Virus record (IMG/VR): IMGVR_UViG_3300020595_003017
Coordinates: 96,001-160,000 of that record
DNA: 64,000 bases
Reading direction: 5' to 3' (one strand)
Source of the DNA: a virus
The notes below the pieces were generated by a model that worked only from the letters and a program-made list of their open reading frames with translations, had not been told where the DNA came from and did not search any database. A program made the position numbers and the translations under genes. Positions 5,313 through 46,168 of this stretch are shown in pieces; position 1 is the stretch's first letter; every line of letters begins with the position of its first letter.

Positions 5313-5672
5313 ATGAGCGACTCTAAAGAAATATTAGAAAGAATAGCGGATGCTTTTGAGACAGTGAATTCAGCTTCGGACGATAAATACCCCAAAGAGG
5401 CTGTAAAAGTCGGGACAATTGTTCGGGCTAATAGATTAGATTCGCTGGGCGTTGTGACAGATGCGTTCTATGGTGAACTAGATAAAGATAATCAAAAGAT
5501 AATAATATACACTGTTCTTTTGTTCCCTAAAAGAAATCCTCTTAACCAAAGAAGAGAAGAGCAGTATTATATAAGTAATGAATACGAATATGAGGTAACA
5601 GCTTACCTCATGATTAATCCAATTAATATAAGCGAGTTAAGAAAGAACTTGGGAGGTGGACTTTTAATATGA
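5313..5672 (+). CDS. hypothetical protein
   Basis: 119 aa ORF, ATGA-coupled to the next gene; no recognised motif. Confidence 0.72.
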   Translation: MSDSKEILERIADAFETVNSASDDKYPKEAVKVGTIVRANRLDSLGVVTDAFYGELDKDNQKIIIYTVLLFPKRNPLNQRREEQYYISNEYEYEVTAYLMINPINISELRKNLGGGLLI

Positions 5673-6442
5673 AAAACAAAATTATGCCTGCGGCTCTACT
5701 GTTTGATATGGATGGAACCCTAACTGATGCTAGGGAACCAATATCACAAGATGTCCTTGAGGCCTTGAAGTCTGTTCCTAATTCCATCAAGAAATATTTA
5801 GTTACTGGTTCTGACATGGTAAAAATTGAAGAGCAAATTTCTAATGATAATTTATTACAACTTTTTGAGCGAGTATTTTCTTGTAATGGCACAAGGGTTT
5901 GGAATTGCAACCTTGATATGGATGACGAGACAAAACCAATTGAACCAGAATTAATTCACACAACCTCATTAATGGATTTTTATTCTGAGGCTGATATTAA
6001 TCATATTGTTAATATCCTTCTAAAGACAGCTTACGAGACCCACACTAAAATTAAAACAGGGACGTTTATTGAATGGCGTGACAGTCAGATTAACTTTTCG
6101 GTAGTGGGGAGAAACTGCACAAGCACTCAGAGAGAGGACTATGTTAAGTGGGATTATAAAAGCGGAGAAAGACAAAAAATAGTGGACCAACTACGAAAGG
6201 ATTTCAAAGGTTGGGGGCTATCTTTTCGATTAGGAGGACAGATCTCTATTGATATTACTCGTGAAGGTTGGGATAAAACTTATGCTTTAAAAAATATCAA
6301 AGAAACTCCAGATCAGTGTGTATTTTTTGGAGATAAGATTTGCAAAGACGGAAATGACCTTGACATTGCTATGAAATGTGGTAAATATCATATGGTTGAT
6401 GGACCAGCGGATTTAATTCTTCAACTACAGGAGTACCTATGA
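5669..6442 (+). CDS. eukaryote-type phosphomannomutase (HAD IIB, PMM family)
   Basis: LFDMDGTLT (HAD motif I), KTGTFIEWR..INFSVVGRNC, GGQISIDI...GWDKTYAL and FFGDKICKDGND match the PMM1/PMM2/SEC53 pattern throughout. Confidence 0.88.
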   Translation: MKNKIMPAALLFDMDGTLTDAREPISQDVLEALKSVPNSIKKYLVTGSDMVKIEEQISNDNLLQLFERVFSCNGTRVWNCNLDMDDETKPIEPELIHTTSLMDFYSEADINHIVNILLKTAYETHTKIKTGTFIEWRDSQINFSVVGRNCTSTQREDYVKWDYKSGERQKIVDQLRKDFKGWGLSFRLGGQISIDITREGWDKTYALKNIKETPDQCVFFGDKICKDGNDLDIAMKCGKYHMVDGPADLILQLQEYL

Positions 6443-8511: not shown

Positions 8512-8718
8512 ATGTCAGAGAACAAGAAACAGTGGAAATGCAATTTCAAGCTTGAGATTATCAGCAAAGAGGGAGCATCACTAGATGATTTTAATGCTTC
8601 CCTTGATAAATTTGTTAGTGATTGGATTGATGTTATCCCCGACACAGGAACAGCAGCACCGGAAAGTGCTATTGACTTCTGGCACGGCGGATTACACTTC
8701 CCACCAGACGAAGAGTAG
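8512..8718 (+). CDS. small acidic hypothetical protein
   Basis: 68 aa with GAGGG upstream. Confidence 0.65.
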   Translation: MSENKKQWKCNFKLEIISKEGASLDDFNASLDKFVSDWIDVIPDTGTAAPESAIDFWHGGLHFPPDEE

Positions 8719-8755
8719 AATTTAGGGAAACAAATAAATGAATAAACGACGATAA

Positions 8756-8918
8756 GTGTCAGGGTTAAACCCGAACCGATCTGGCAGGAAGCATAAAGAG
8801 CCAGCGTCCCTACCTTCAGTACCCACATACCTTTGAAGAGTTGCGTGTGGAAGACGGCTTGTAGGGTCAGATACAAATGTAACAGGAGTCCAGATGTACT
8901 TGGGCAAAAACTCTTCAC
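8756..8918 (+). ncRNA. candidate 6S-like (stem-bubble-stem) structured RNA
   Basis: Hand fold: interrupted closing stem 8756-8784/8890-8918, unpaired 23x23 nt bubble, terminal stem-loop 8808-8866 (CCCTAC/GTAGGG, CCACAT/GTGTGG). No credible + strand ORF. Strand assumed from the neighbours. Confidence 0.42.
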
Positions 8919-8922
8919 ATTT

Positions 8923-8999
<77 letters not shown>

Positions 9000-9009
9000 A
9001 GGAGTTATG

Positions 9010-9615
9010 ATGTTGAGAGTTTTAGGAAAATTACCAAGAGAACTGGTCGTCGCTGTCAGCGGCGGTCCAGACTCTATGGCTATCTTGGACTTTCTTAATA
9101 ACAGTCATAAAGTGACTGCCTATTATTTTGATCATGGAACAGAGTTTGGAGTTGAGGGTTATCGTTTCCTTAAGGACTATTGTGGAAAGAAAAATATTCC
9201 CTTAATTGTAGATTATATTTCTTCTTCCCGACCAAAGGGCAAATCCATGGAAGAGCACTGGCGTGATGAACGGTACAAATGCTTTCACGCTTTTGATTTT
9301 CCGGTTATCACGGGTCATCACTTAAACGATGTGATTGAGTGGTTTTTATTTTCTTCTATGCACGGACAGGGAAAAGTTATTCCCTACAAGAACAAAAACG
9401 TTTTTAGACCGTTTATCTCTACTCCTAAAAGCAAACTGCTTGACTGGTGTGAGCGCAAGGAAGTTCCTTATCTGGTTGATCCGGCAAACGAGAACCGAGA
9501 CTTCATGCGAAGCATTATTCGACACGATATTGTGCCCCATGCCGAAATGGTAAATCCAGGGATCGAAAAAACATTTAAAAAAATAGTAGAAAGGGAGTAT
9601 AATCTATTATACTAA
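9010..9615 (+). CDS. tilS: tRNA(Ile)-lysidine synthase, compact catalytic domain only
   Basis: VAVSGGPDSM PP-loop, DHG, E..WRDERY, TGHHLND..E, RPF, DPAN...RS.IRH. Start 9010 (or 9007) follows GGAG 9001-9004; the tracked start 8965 lies inside the tRNA. Confidence 0.92.
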   Translation: MLRVLGKLPRELVVAVSGGPDSMAILDFLNNSHKVTAYYFDHGTEFGVEGYRFLKDYCGKKNIPLIVDYISSSRPKGKSMEEHWRDERYKCFHAFDFPVITGHHLNDVIEWFLFSSMHGQGKVIPYKNKNVFRPFISTPKSKLLDWCERKEVPYLVDPANENRDFMRSIIRHDIVPHAEMVNPGIEKTFKKIVEREYNLLY

Positions 9616-9692
9616 GGGGGGTTAGCTCAATTGGTTAGAGCAACTGACTCATAATCAGTAGGTTCTAGGTTCAAGTCCTAGACCCCCTACCA
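9616..9692 (+). tRNA. tRNA with CAU anticodon, probably tRNA-Ile2 (lysidine substrate)
   Basis: Acceptor GGGGGGT/ACCCCCT, A73, CCA; arm ACTGA-CT CAT AA-TCAGT. Lacks the initiator GGG/CCC anticodon stem. Begins at the base after the tilS stop. Elongator Met is not excluded by sequence alone. Confidence 0.9.
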
Positions 9693-9858: not shown

Positions 9859-10347
9859 ATGTATAAAGATTTGATAACAGAAATTCCAAACTGGCCAAAA
9901 GAAGGTGTAACATTCAAGGATATAAGTCCGTTACTAAAATCAGATAGGTTTCACCAAGCGATACGAGACTTGGGAGAAAAGTTTAACAACCTCGATGAGG
10001 TTGATTTTTTTGTTGGCATTGACTCAAGAGGTTTTATATTTGCCTCTGCCTTAGCAACCATGTTTGGTAAGGGTGTGGTGCTAGCAAGAAAAAAAGGTAA
10101 ACTACCACCACCATTTGTCAGTGTACATTACGAACTGGAATATGGTAAGGACTATTTGCAGATGGGCAACGGCAGCGGAAACGTTATCATAGTTGATGAT
10201 GTTTTGGCTACTGGCGGAACCCTCAAAGCAACCCAGGAATTATGTAGGACGGCGGGCTACAACGTAATAGACTGTGGTGTTCTGATAGATTTAAAATTTT
10301 TACATGATGATGATATAAAAGCAAAAAGTGTTATAGAATATGAATAG
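9859..10347 (+). CDS. apt: adenine phosphoribosyltransferase
   Basis: IPNWPKEGVTFKDISPLL, GIDSRGFIF, ARKKGKLP, YELEYG and the PRPP loop IIVDDVLATGGT. Real start is ATG 9859; the tracked extension is tRNA sequence. Confidence 0.94.
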   Translation: MYKDLITEIPNWPKEGVTFKDISPLLKSDRFHQAIRDLGEKFNNLDEVDFFVGIDSRGFIFASALATMFGKGVVLARKKGKLPPPFVSVHYELEYGKDYLQMGNGSGNVIIVDDVLATGGTLKATQELCRTAGYNVIDCGVLIDLKFLHDDDIKAKSVIEYE

Positions 10348-10915
10348 AATAGTTGTATTGTGTGCTTTGCCAGAAGAGACACAAGGTTTAGTTGAGGAGT
10401 ATGTCCCTACGTTTTATACAGGCGTTGGAAAAGTTAATGCAACTATGACAGCTATGAGGTGTATTATAGATTACAACCCAGATTTGATTATAAACTTTGG
10501 CACTGCTGGCAGTAACAAGGTTGACCAAGGTACGTTAGTTGATTGCACTAATTTTATCCAAAGAGATATGCACATAAAAGAATTAGGATTTGATCTAGGG
10601 GTTACACCATTCGAAGATAAAGACACATCTTTATTATCTTTCCCTTCAGAAAACCCAATCAATAAAAGACTTACTTGTGGTACTGGCGATACGTTCGTTA
10701 GCGATATGAAAAACACTCCTTATGATGTTGTTGATATGGAATCATATGCTATCGCCAAATGCTGCTACGAGTGCGATATTGATTTTGTGTCTTTCAAATA
10801 TATTACTGATGGTGCTAATGATGATGCACCAAGTGATTGGAATGAAAACTGTAAAAACGGTGCGAATGCCTTTATTGAGGTTTTGCAAAAGTATTTGGAG
10901 AATAAAGATGAATAA
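10340..10915 (+). CDS. mtnN: 5'-methylthioadenosine/S-adenosylhomocysteine nucleosidase (PNP_UDP_1 fold)
   Basis: TGVGKVNA, INFGTAG, TGDTFV, VVDMESYAIA, KYITDGA. Confidence 0.85.
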   Translation: MNRIVVLCALPEETQGLVEEYVPTFYTGVGKVNATMTAMRCIIDYNPDLIINFGTAGSNKVDQGTLVDCTNFIQRDMHIKELGFDLGVTPFEDKDTSLLSFPSENPINKRLTCGTGDTFVSDMKNTPYDVVDMESYAIAKCCYECDIDFVSFKYITDGANDDAPSDWNENCKNGANAFIEVLQKYLENKDE

Positions 10916-21062: not shown

Positions 21063-21385
21063 GGGGGTAAACGGTATCGACTGATGGGAAAGTAGAAAAG
21101 GTGCAAGGGTGAGGGAAGCGTGGCTCACTAAAAACGCTTATCTTTTAATCGCAAACGACGATTTTCAACTAGCACAAGCAGCTTAATAACCTGACTTGAC
21201 TTGAGGCGCTGGCAGCCAAGAAACAGAAAGCCATACTGTGTCCTTTTAGTGATTTTGATTGTTTTGTCCGTAATAAAACAATCTAGTCAAGTGGTCTGTC
21301 CGACGAAAAAAACAGTTCTAACCTTGTGAATGACCTCTCTACGGAACTAGACAAGACGGGAGTTCGATTCTCCCTACCTCCACCA
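21063..21385 (+). ncRNA. ssrA: tmRNA, tag (A)ANDDFQLAQAA
   Basis: 5' GGGGGTAAACGGTATCGAC; 3' T-arm GGGAG-TTCGATT-CTCCC and TACCTCC-A-CCA with G3.U70; pk1 stems GTGAG/CTCAC and AAGCGT/ACGCTT; tag ORF 21151-21186 ending GCA GCT TAA TAA. Confidence 0.96.
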
Positions 21386-45229: not shown

Positions 45230-45504
45230 CTCTTTATTATATTTTGGCCTTTTCTGTTATCTGTAATATTTTCTTTGTTTGGTATGTTAGGCAGCTTTTG
45301 ATTCGCTTTAATTATTTTTCTACAAACTTTGAAGCCCTTTCGGATATGATACAGGTATATCACGATCACCTAGAAAAGGTTTATGGTCTTGAAACGTTTT
45401 ATGGAGACACAACTCTACAAGGGCTCCTAAATCATACGAAAGATTTTTCAGAGTTCATAACAGGAATGAAGGTAAATTTTGAAATCGACCAAGAAGAGGA
45501 ATAA
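45226..45504 (+). CDS. small membrane protein
   Basis: N-terminal transmembrane segment; LETFYGDTTLQGLL. Confidence 0.68.
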   Translation: MTLYYILAFSVICNIFFVWYVRQLLIRFNYFSTNFEALSDMIQVYHDHLEKVYGLETFYGDTTLQGLLNHTKDFSEFITGMKVNFEIDQEEE

Positions 45505-46168
45505 AAACCATTACTTTACAAAAGATACGGAGAGAGCAATAATTGCTTATTGCAGCACTGATGATCTATCTGTAAGGTCTAAACTTTACATAGAACAAAT
45601 CCAGCCAGCGTTTAATGAGCTTGTTGACAAGATCGTATATACTTATAAATTTACTTCCCTTGAAAACATTGATGTATTAAAAGACGACTGTAAAATTTGG
45701 CTAACAACAATATTGTCTAAGTTTGATCCTACACAAGGCACTAAGGCTTTCTCATATTTTTCTGTTGTAACGAAAAACTGGTTTACCCACAAGGCTAAAA
45801 AACAAACTCAAAAAAACAAAAGAGAGATAAATTATGATCTCATGATAAAAGAGGTAGAGATCGCCGATGTTAACAGGTCGGATTTTTTATCTGAGGCAGA
45901 GGAAAGAGAATTTTGGGCTTTTTTACTGAATGAAGTAGAAAGTTGGCAAAGACTAAAGATGAAAGGAAACGATCAAAAAGTTTTAGATGCCGTACTAACT
46001 TTAATGAAAAACATAGAAGACATAGAAATTTTTAATAAAAAAGCGGTTTATCTTTATATGAGAGAGATAACAGGGCTAAACACCAAACAGATAGTTGGTT
46101 GTCTAAATAAAATGCGAGCCAGGTTTAGAGTTTTTAAGGAAAAATGGGACAGGGGAGAAATTAAGTGA
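45479..46168 (+). CDS. phage-encoded sigma factor (T4 gp55-like, sigma70 region 2)
   Basis: N-terminal HYFTK...AII and region-2-like ILSKFDPTQGTKAFSYFSVVTKNWF; helical C-terminus ending YLYMREITGLNTKQI. TTG start. Confidence 0.72.
   Translation: MKSTKKRNKNHYFTKDTERAIIAYCSTDDLSVRSKLYIEQIQPAFNELVDKIVYTYKFTSLENIDVLKDDCKIWLTTILSKFDPTQGTKAFSYFSVVTKNWFTHKAKKQTQKNKREINYDLMIKEVEIADVNRSDFLSEAEEREFWAFLLNEVESWQRLKMKGNDQKVLDAVLTLMKNIEDIEIFNKKAVYLYMREITGLNTKQIVGCLNKMRARFRVFKEKWDRGEIK

Follow-up and report, generated by a model that had tools for sequence, protein, structure and literature searches.

A conserved pseudoknotted RNA preceded by an arginine-rich mini-ORF at the head of a phage tRNA cluster

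The window analysed here is a stretch of 64,000 nucleotides, corresponding to bases 96001–160000 of a 190.5-kb IMG/VR virus record. In this window, a gap of 204 nt (8719–8922), whose existence and position agree with an initial annotation of the region, separates a 68-codon ORF (8512–8718) on its 5′ side from tRNA-Arg(TCT), the first tRNA of a cluster, on its 3′ side. Downstream of tRNA-Arg(TCT) lies a gene for a 201-aa PP-loop (TilS-like) protein (9010–9615; Pfam PF01171, 5.8e-31), and further tRNAs of the cluster, with anticodons CAT, TGT and TCC, follow it. The 68-codon ORF, the element located in the gap, the tRNAs and the TilS-like gene are all carried by the + strand. The minimal TilS-like gene and the following tRNA(CAT) are joined with zero spacer between them (9010–9692, +), and this tRNA may be the tRNA-Ile2 substrate of the enzyme rather than a tRNA-Met.

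The phage encodes a gp6-like baseplate wedge protein and has no close cultured relative: the proteins neighbouring the gap match only distant cultured phages. When 50,697 phage records were searched by blastn with the gap as query, just chance matches of 26–29 nt were obtained, so that no cultured relative was found in this collection. Several other genes of the window can be mentioned. The segment 177–4294 (+) encodes a SpoVR-like protein (Pfam 5.7e-120) together with a serine kinase of the PrkA/YeaG type; the kinase is 34% identical to a Thermus phage ‘serine kinase’, and another ORF is present upstream of the pair. A eukaryote-type HAD phosphomannomutase (PF03332, 2.8e-44) is encoded at 5669–6442 (+), and a PNP_UDP_1 phosphorylase-family gene (10340–10915, +) is located directly 3′ of the tRNA cluster. 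Finally, a full-length phage tmRNA (Rfam RF00023, 84 bits) is found at 21063–21385 (+). Its tag frame reads ANDDFQLAQAA and is followed by two stops, and a terminator-like hairpin is present 3′ of the CCA end.

Relatives of the locus were gathered via the TilS-like protein, which yielded 37 viral loci. In 20 of these, the gap is 80–94% identical to the window at the nucleotide level, whereas the TilS-like protein is just 64–72% identical. The element has a mean identity to the window of 88.6%; the corresponding values are 92.7% and 82.6% for two tRNAs and 73.5% for tilS DNA. Judged by these identities, the element is as conserved as the adjacent tRNAs, and its unpaired nucleotides are also conserved at the tRNA level. 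A search of viral contigs with a 15-mer and a gapped pattern returned mostly chance matches and one added member (L041). Marine metagenome members were recovered with a 20-base gapped pattern, at least 100 being present among the matches listed. The family thus comprises 22 viral contigs and at least 100 marine metagenome contigs, and at least 120 members retain the entire unit. Applied to cellular genomes, the 20-base pattern gave 13 matches, which equals the chance expectation; none of them fits the family HMM and no cellular copy was found. Model R1 did not detect the element in five more distant phage records with a TilS-like gene. A second match in the genome of the window itself (13.8 bits) was discarded, the whole central hairpin being missing. 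Sequences were aligned with MAFFT (19 and 94 distinct sequences), and mini-ORF counts were made on 102 unique members.

The gap had initially been described as free of ORFs. It contains, in fact, a conserved mini-ORF of five codons in the window. An in-frame ORF starting with ATG and finishing at the same TAA was found in 101 of the 102 unique members, with a length of 9 codons in 77 members and a range of 5–12, and a Shine-Dalgarno-like motif is located 4–13 nt upstream of the ATG in 84 of 101. The family consensus is MKKK[Y/N]T[K/R]RR, directly followed by the stop. The last codon is AGA (60 members) or CGA (41 members), and the penultimate one is CGA in 98. At position −3, K or R is specified by six different codons, and Thr at position −4 by ACC, ACA and ACT (27, 27 and 25 members, respectively). 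This synonymous variation of the Thr and K/R codons indicates selection on the translated product. The codon comparison shows an arginine-rich peptide under selection, and hence a mini-ORF predicted to be translated. Whether the last codon is AGA or CGA bears no relation to which tRNA comes first in the cluster. The stop codon of the mini-ORF is mostly located 23–47 nt past the end of the upstream frame.

Table 1. Coordinates of the features identified in and next to the gap.
Feature	Coordinates	Strand	Evidence
Shine-Dalgarno-like AGGGA, 9 nt 5′ of the mini-ORF ATG	8724..8728	+	sequence
Mini-ORF ATG AAT AAA CGA CGA TAA (MNKRR, stop)	8738..8755	+	conserved in-frame ATG
H1: G8758-C8776, T8759-A8775, GGG 8762-64/CCC 8770-72	8758..8776	+	covariation
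H2: CG 8777-78/CG 8805-06, CTGGC 8781-85/GCCAG 8800-04; loop of 14-15 nt	8777..8806	+	
Long irregular hairpin H3-H5: CCCTAC 8808-13/GTAGGG 8861-66, C8814-G8856, G8819-C8855, T8820-A8854, CCACAT 8823-28/GTGTGG 8845-50	8808..8866	+	covariation, invariant U.G
Pseudoknot 5′ strand TGAAGAGTT, apical loop of the long hairpin	8834..8842	+	pairs with 8909-8917
Single-stranded linker, near-invariant AGATAC and AGGA (8884-87)	8867..8887	+	conservation in alignment A2
Variable hairpin H6: G8888-C8905, TCCA 8889-92/TGGG 8901-04	8888..8905	+	
Pseudoknot 3′ strand AACTCTTCA	8909..8917	+	pairs with 8834-8842
Spacer CATTT, ends with U(-1); predicted RNase P site, 3′ end of the element	8918..8922	+	inferred cleavage
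tRNA-Arg(TCT), first of the cluster	8923..8999	+	ARAGORN and Rfam

Comparison of the family members indicates that the gap carries a real folded RNA, strongly conserved and about 160–165 nt in length. The predicted fold is composed of hairpins H1 and H2, a long hairpin (H3–H5), a variable hairpin (H6) and a pseudoknot in which the apical loop of the long hairpin pairs with the 3′ tail (Table 1). H1 begins 2 nt past the stop codon of the mini-ORF. Its pair 8762/8772 is never unpaired and occurs as G-C in 78 sequences, A-U in 13 and C-G in 3, with at least 10 switches on the tree. H2 is paired in 100% of the 94 sequences, the sole changes being from C to U opposite G; as there is no compensatory change in this hairpin, its support comes from invariance alone. 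In the long hairpin, pair 8820/8854 is U-A in 84 sequences and C-G in 10 (3 switches on the tree), and pair 8814/8856 is C-G in 87 and U-A in 6 (4 switches). A few unpaired cells occur in H3 at 8811–8813, and 8828/8845 is an invariant U.G pair. H6 is represented by 51 distinct sequences of 15–45 nt in the 94 members, each of which folds into one hairpin, with a closing pair that is G-C in 66 sequences and A-U in 25. As for the pseudoknot, 98.2% of cells are paired. An A-U to G-C switch found in 5 sequences represents one event, and a single change to G.U occurs in 9 sequences (6+1+1+1 over four pairs). The pseudoknot rests on one compensatory event together with these G.U changes.

For the whole fold, 98.3% of 3848 cells are paired in the 94 sequences, and pairing falls to 26–45% of cells when partners are slid by 1–3 columns. 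Changes on both sides were observed at nine pairs (116 cells versus about 21 cells in shuffles) and none of 500 shuffles matched this result, a statistic that is generous and overstates independence because all the members are fairly close relatives. The frequent G.U pairs, one of them invariant, indicate that the RNA is made from the + strand. A protein-coding core was considered and rejected because indels break the frame: lengths fall into all three classes modulo 3, the commonest being 162 and 163 nt. Altogether, the alignments show an element whose predicted RNA product is conserved on the + strand, covarying and non-coding. The minimum free energy of the gap, or of 8756–8918, is no better than that of shuffled sequences (z = +0.62), and thermodynamics alone give no signal. 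When the gap was scanned with cmscan against all 4227 families of Rfam 15, using inputs of 901 nt and 196 nt, nothing was obtained at E<=10, nor with the gathering cut-offs. A full-text search with two conserved 15-mers returned no paper. Judged by Rfam and by this text search, the element is uncatalogued.

Two members present partial duplications. In L299 (600–1400, −), the element is duplicated: the first copy ends after the linker, where an ORF of about 80 codons is inserted, and the conserved AGGAG of the linker serves as the Shine-Dalgarno sequence of this inserted ORF. The second copy is complete, with a degenerate mini-ORF end, and abuts a tRNA-Val. In L300 (5630–5720, +), the linker, H6 and the pseudoknot 3′ strand, which make up the 3′ third of the element, are repeated 2 nt 5′ of a tRNA-Lys (5723), in a second tRNA sub-cluster situated about 700 nt past the complete copy.

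The position of the element relative to the first tRNA is fixed. The distance between the pseudoknot 3′ strand and the tRNA +1 position is 5 nt in 70 members and 6 nt in 18 (88 of 88), and a U occupies position −1 in 87 of 88. The first tRNA itself is variable (Arg-TCT in 42 relatives, Val-TAC in 37, Lys-TTT in 9 and Gly in 3), as are the upstream genes, and the spacing is the same regardless of the tRNA. No recurrent promoter-like site was found at a fixed place across the family, the mini-ORF directly following the upstream genes. Variable upstream genes, the lack of a recurrent promoter and the fixed tRNA spacing are therefore most simply explained by a polycistronic transcript and a 3′ boundary made by RNase P. 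No terminator-like site was detected in 8719–8922, and neither H6 nor the pseudoknot is followed by a U-run in alignment A2. The sole downstream terminator-like site, at 9102, falls within tilS.

The conservation pattern bears on a DNA-level role, in which the locus would be an origin, a recombination or homing site, or a promoter array, and on the view that the fold arises by chance. The locus does behave as a rearrangement hot spot, with variable upstream genes and first tRNA and with the element duplicated around an inserted ORF in L299. Nevertheless, the compensatory changes, with G.U pairs specific to one strand, indicate that an RNA read from the + strand is under selection, conservation of the element is far above that of its flanks, and the whole unit is kept in at least 120 members. 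We consider explanations of this kind highly unlikely.

The initial annotation had folded the gap into a rod similar to 6S RNA, with closing stems, a central bubble of 23x23 nt and an inner stem. Such an RNA would mimic an open promoter and sequester the sigma70 holoenzyme, freeing core polymerase for a phage late sigma factor. A length of about 165 nt is within the 6S range, and the rod can be drawn on the window sequence alone: the four outer complementary pairs, as well as the inner CCCTAC/GTAGGG and CCACAT/GTGTGG, are all present where the annotation had placed them. However, the closing stems are not supported by the relatives. They show 0 compensatory pairs and 86% pairing in 19 sequences, a value equal to that of shuffles, and again 0 compensatory pairs with 81.9% pairing in 94 sequences, where 499 of 500 shuffles are at least equal. 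Nucleotides of the rod belong instead to the covarying local hairpins and the pseudoknot; column 46 of the alignment (window 8762), for instance, had been assigned to the rod and covaries perfectly with the partner that it has in the local hairpin. In the proposed bubble, the 5′ side (8785–8807) corresponds to the loop and 3′ strand of H2, a hairpin paired in every one of the 94 sequences. The inner stem survives in part, since CCCTAC/GTAGGG and CCACAT/GTGTGG are retained in the family fold, with AGT/GCT replaced by G8819-C8855 and T8820-A8854, the register in which U-A becomes C-G in 10 sequences. Helices that the annotation had considered as competitors of the rod, CTGGC/GCCAG and TGAAGAGTT/AACTCTTCA, do exist and are not mere competitors, as it is they that the family conserves.

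The 6S identity is not supported by other data either. The Rfam 6S covariance models (RF00013 and related) gave no match in the gap at E<=10, and the element lacks its own promoter and is joined to a mini-ORF on one side and to a tRNA on the other. The phage sigma factor invoked in this scheme (45479–46168, +) is a weak gp55-like late sigma candidate, because its only match is to PHROG 234 (gp55-type late sigma transcription factors) with an E value of 0.003, searches of Pfam and of PDB sequences having given nothing. A 6S-like function is thus very improbable, and the tempting annotation of a phage 6S RNA should be removed as wrong. The fallback offered with it, a novel non-coding RNA associated with the tRNA cluster, is by contrast well supported by an element that is conserved, covarying, read on the + strand and locked 5′ of the first tRNA.

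We tentatively favour, at somewhat less than an even chance, an interpretation of the element as the translation-coupled leader of the phage tRNA operon, which would be released by RNase P. The module, placed at the head of the tRNAs, would consist of an arginine-rich mini-ORF of 5–12 codons and an RNA fold of roughly 160 nt starting 2 nt past its stop. It would have no promoter of its own and would be produced within a polycistronic early transcript running into the tRNAs, RNase P cleavage at the +1 position of the first tRNA defining the 3′ end of the element. The tail of 5–6 nt left behind the pseudoknot would be too short for a 3′ exonuclease to grip. With the stop codon 2 nt from H1, a ribosome terminating on the mini-ORF would have to cover the 5′ strand of this hairpin, judging from the size of the ribosome footprint, so that translation and folding of the leader would be coupled. 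The module could then act in cis on the tRNA precursor, at the level of folding, protection, processing or read-through, and this effect would follow ribosome traffic over the Arg codons.

Several observations do not fit easily with such a leader. No terminator or conserved alternative pairing that would make a switch was seen. The alternative pairings tested (the rod stems and AGGG 8761–64/CCCT 8808–11) show no compensation and are broken in 16–18% of sequences, most sequences still being able to form them. In addition, the last codon is unrelated to the tRNA that follows. Finally, conservation of unpaired nucleotides at the tRNA level exceeds what a simple leader needs, and a trans-acting RNA or a specific partner would fit equally well.

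A more specific proposal, which we regard as rather doubtful, is that the module serves the tRNA operon as a sensor of decoding capacity. Ribosomes slowed or stalled on the terminal CGA/AGA codons would hold H1 open, and open H1 would redirect folding of the pseudoknotted leader, altering the yield of mature tRNAs. The route could be RNase P access 5–6 nt behind the pseudoknot, or access of Rho or of a nuclease. The cluster includes tRNA-Arg(UCU) and the pair formed by TilS and tRNA(CAU). In a variant of this idea, the basic nonapeptide, similar to Tat, would bind its own RNA as a folding cofactor encoded in cis. If true, this would provide, in a phage, the first case of a tRNA operon controlled by a leader peptide.

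The conservation of unpaired nucleotides at the tRNA level also suits a trans-acting, small stable RNA. Like the species 1 and 2 RNAs of T4 (rnaC and rnaD), such an RNA would be released from the precursor of the tRNAs; it would accumulate, and might bind a partner, from the host or the phage, with a role in translation or tRNA biology. In this view, the mini-ORF would be a separate second product or would just keep ribosomes on the transcript. The compact predicted fold, with a 3′ end tucked into the pseudoknot and a tail of 5–6 nt, is consistent with this proposal, as is the situation in T4, where spacers of 1 and 6 nt separate two stable RNAs from tRNA-Arg(UCU). However, the element has no covariance-model similarity to rnaC and rnaD and lacks their tRNA-like T-arm, and a translated ORF selected for its peptide at 2 nt from the fold would be unusual for a stable RNA. 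We consider a stable RNA somewhat unlikely, while keeping it as the first alternative to a leader.

The location of the element, inside a polycistronic phage transcript at the point where translation ends and an extended untranslated region begins, also raises the possibility that it acts in cis as a processive antiterminator, in the manner of the HK022 put RNA. In this case, the nascent RNA would bind the transcribing RNA polymerase and enable it to cross the tRNA cluster, which is untranslated, and to continue past it. The put RNA provides a precedent for phage RNAs of this kind (PMC9378689), and a conserved host enzyme as binding partner would be in keeping with the high conservation of the sequence. 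The element has no Rfam match, no terminator that would need suppression was found downstream (the only such site lying within tilS) and an antiterminator leaves no role for the mini-ORF. Antitermination therefore seems unlikely to be the function of this RNA.

Phage tRNA clusters are usually seen as plain codon-supplement cassettes. In the abundant, uncultured and apparently T4-like marine phage lineage described here, the tRNA cluster is headed by a predicted pseudoknotted RNA of tRNA-grade conservation and by a selected arginine-rich mini-peptide. The RNA is tied with nucleotide precision to the predicted RNase P site of the first tRNA. Such an arrangement suggests that tRNA expression is regulated or assisted in the course of infection, or else that the RNA is a new stable species with a partner. 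The family counts at least 120 members, covaries well and is absent from Rfam, and should be suitable for structural and biochemical work.

The element was also compared with known systems. It resembles 6S RNA (SsrS; RF00013 and relatives) in being non-coding and of similar length, and differs from it by the lack of a conserved closing stem, of a central bubble, of a model match and of its own promoter, as well as by its fusion to a mini-ORF and a tRNA. GOLLD and ROOL, whose function is unknown, are structured non-coding RNAs frequently located next to tRNA genes in phages and prophages. Unlike the element, the GOLLD and ROOL RNAs (bioRxiv 10.1101/2024.12.08.627333) are 3–5 times larger and lack a mini-ORF, and the element is not matched by the Rfam models of either. 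The HK022 put RNA is about 70 nt long, with two stem-loops and no ORF (PMC9378689). By functional analogy, the element might similarly be a phage-encoded, cis-acting folded nascent RNA of an early operon; it is longer than put and associated with an ORF, and the two were compared through the Rfam search, which was empty.

The Rfam tmRNA model matches 21063–21385 and not the element, and the longest identities between the element and the tmRNA of the window are just 9–10 nt. Element positions 8807–8815 and tmRNA positions 21371–21379 have in common TCCCTACCT, which belongs to the 3′ strand of the T-stem/acceptor in tmRNA, and this identity extends to 12 nt in members with CCTCCAG. Positions 8744–8753 and 21153–21162 have in common AAACGACGAT, located at the start of the tmRNA tag frame, and the majority form of H1, GGGGTAAAC, is identical to the 5′ end of the tmRNA. 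The number of nine-mer matches expected by chance is about 0.25; these identities may be due to chance or may be a vestige of common origin.

The T4 rnaC and rnaD RNAs are closer in context. They are phage RNAs of 119–139 nt located in a tRNA cluster, abut tRNA-Arg(UCU) with spacers of 1–6 nt, and are presumably carved from the same precursor as the tRNAs, according to the T4 annotation. They are located 3′ of the tRNA, whereas the element is 5′. In addition, rnaC ends in a tRNA-like T-arm that the element lacks, and neither T4 RNA has a mini-ORF or a reported pseudoknot, both of which are features of the element. Model R1, run with filters off on the T4 tRNA region, produced only noise and nothing on rnaC or rnaD. 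To our knowledge, the function of the T4 species 1 and 2 RNAs is still not known, decades after their discovery.

Leader-peptide attenuators are exemplified by trpL, hisL and pheL (PMC3082878 for pheL), and ORF-containing leaders by Salmonella mgtL and mgtP. The element differs from attenuators by the lack of a terminator hairpin with a U-run, by the nature of the downstream genes, which are tRNAs and not genes for biosynthetic enzymes, and by a far stronger conservation of the RNA sequence. As for mutually exclusive pairings, the candidates tested show no compensation, although most sequences could still form them. It nevertheless has in common with them a very short translated ORF, with 2–3 consecutive codons of the same kind, situated directly before a structured leader: 101 of 102 members have an ATG ORF ending in [K/R]-R-R-stop. 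As in attenuators, the position of the ribosome might decide the folding of the RNA.
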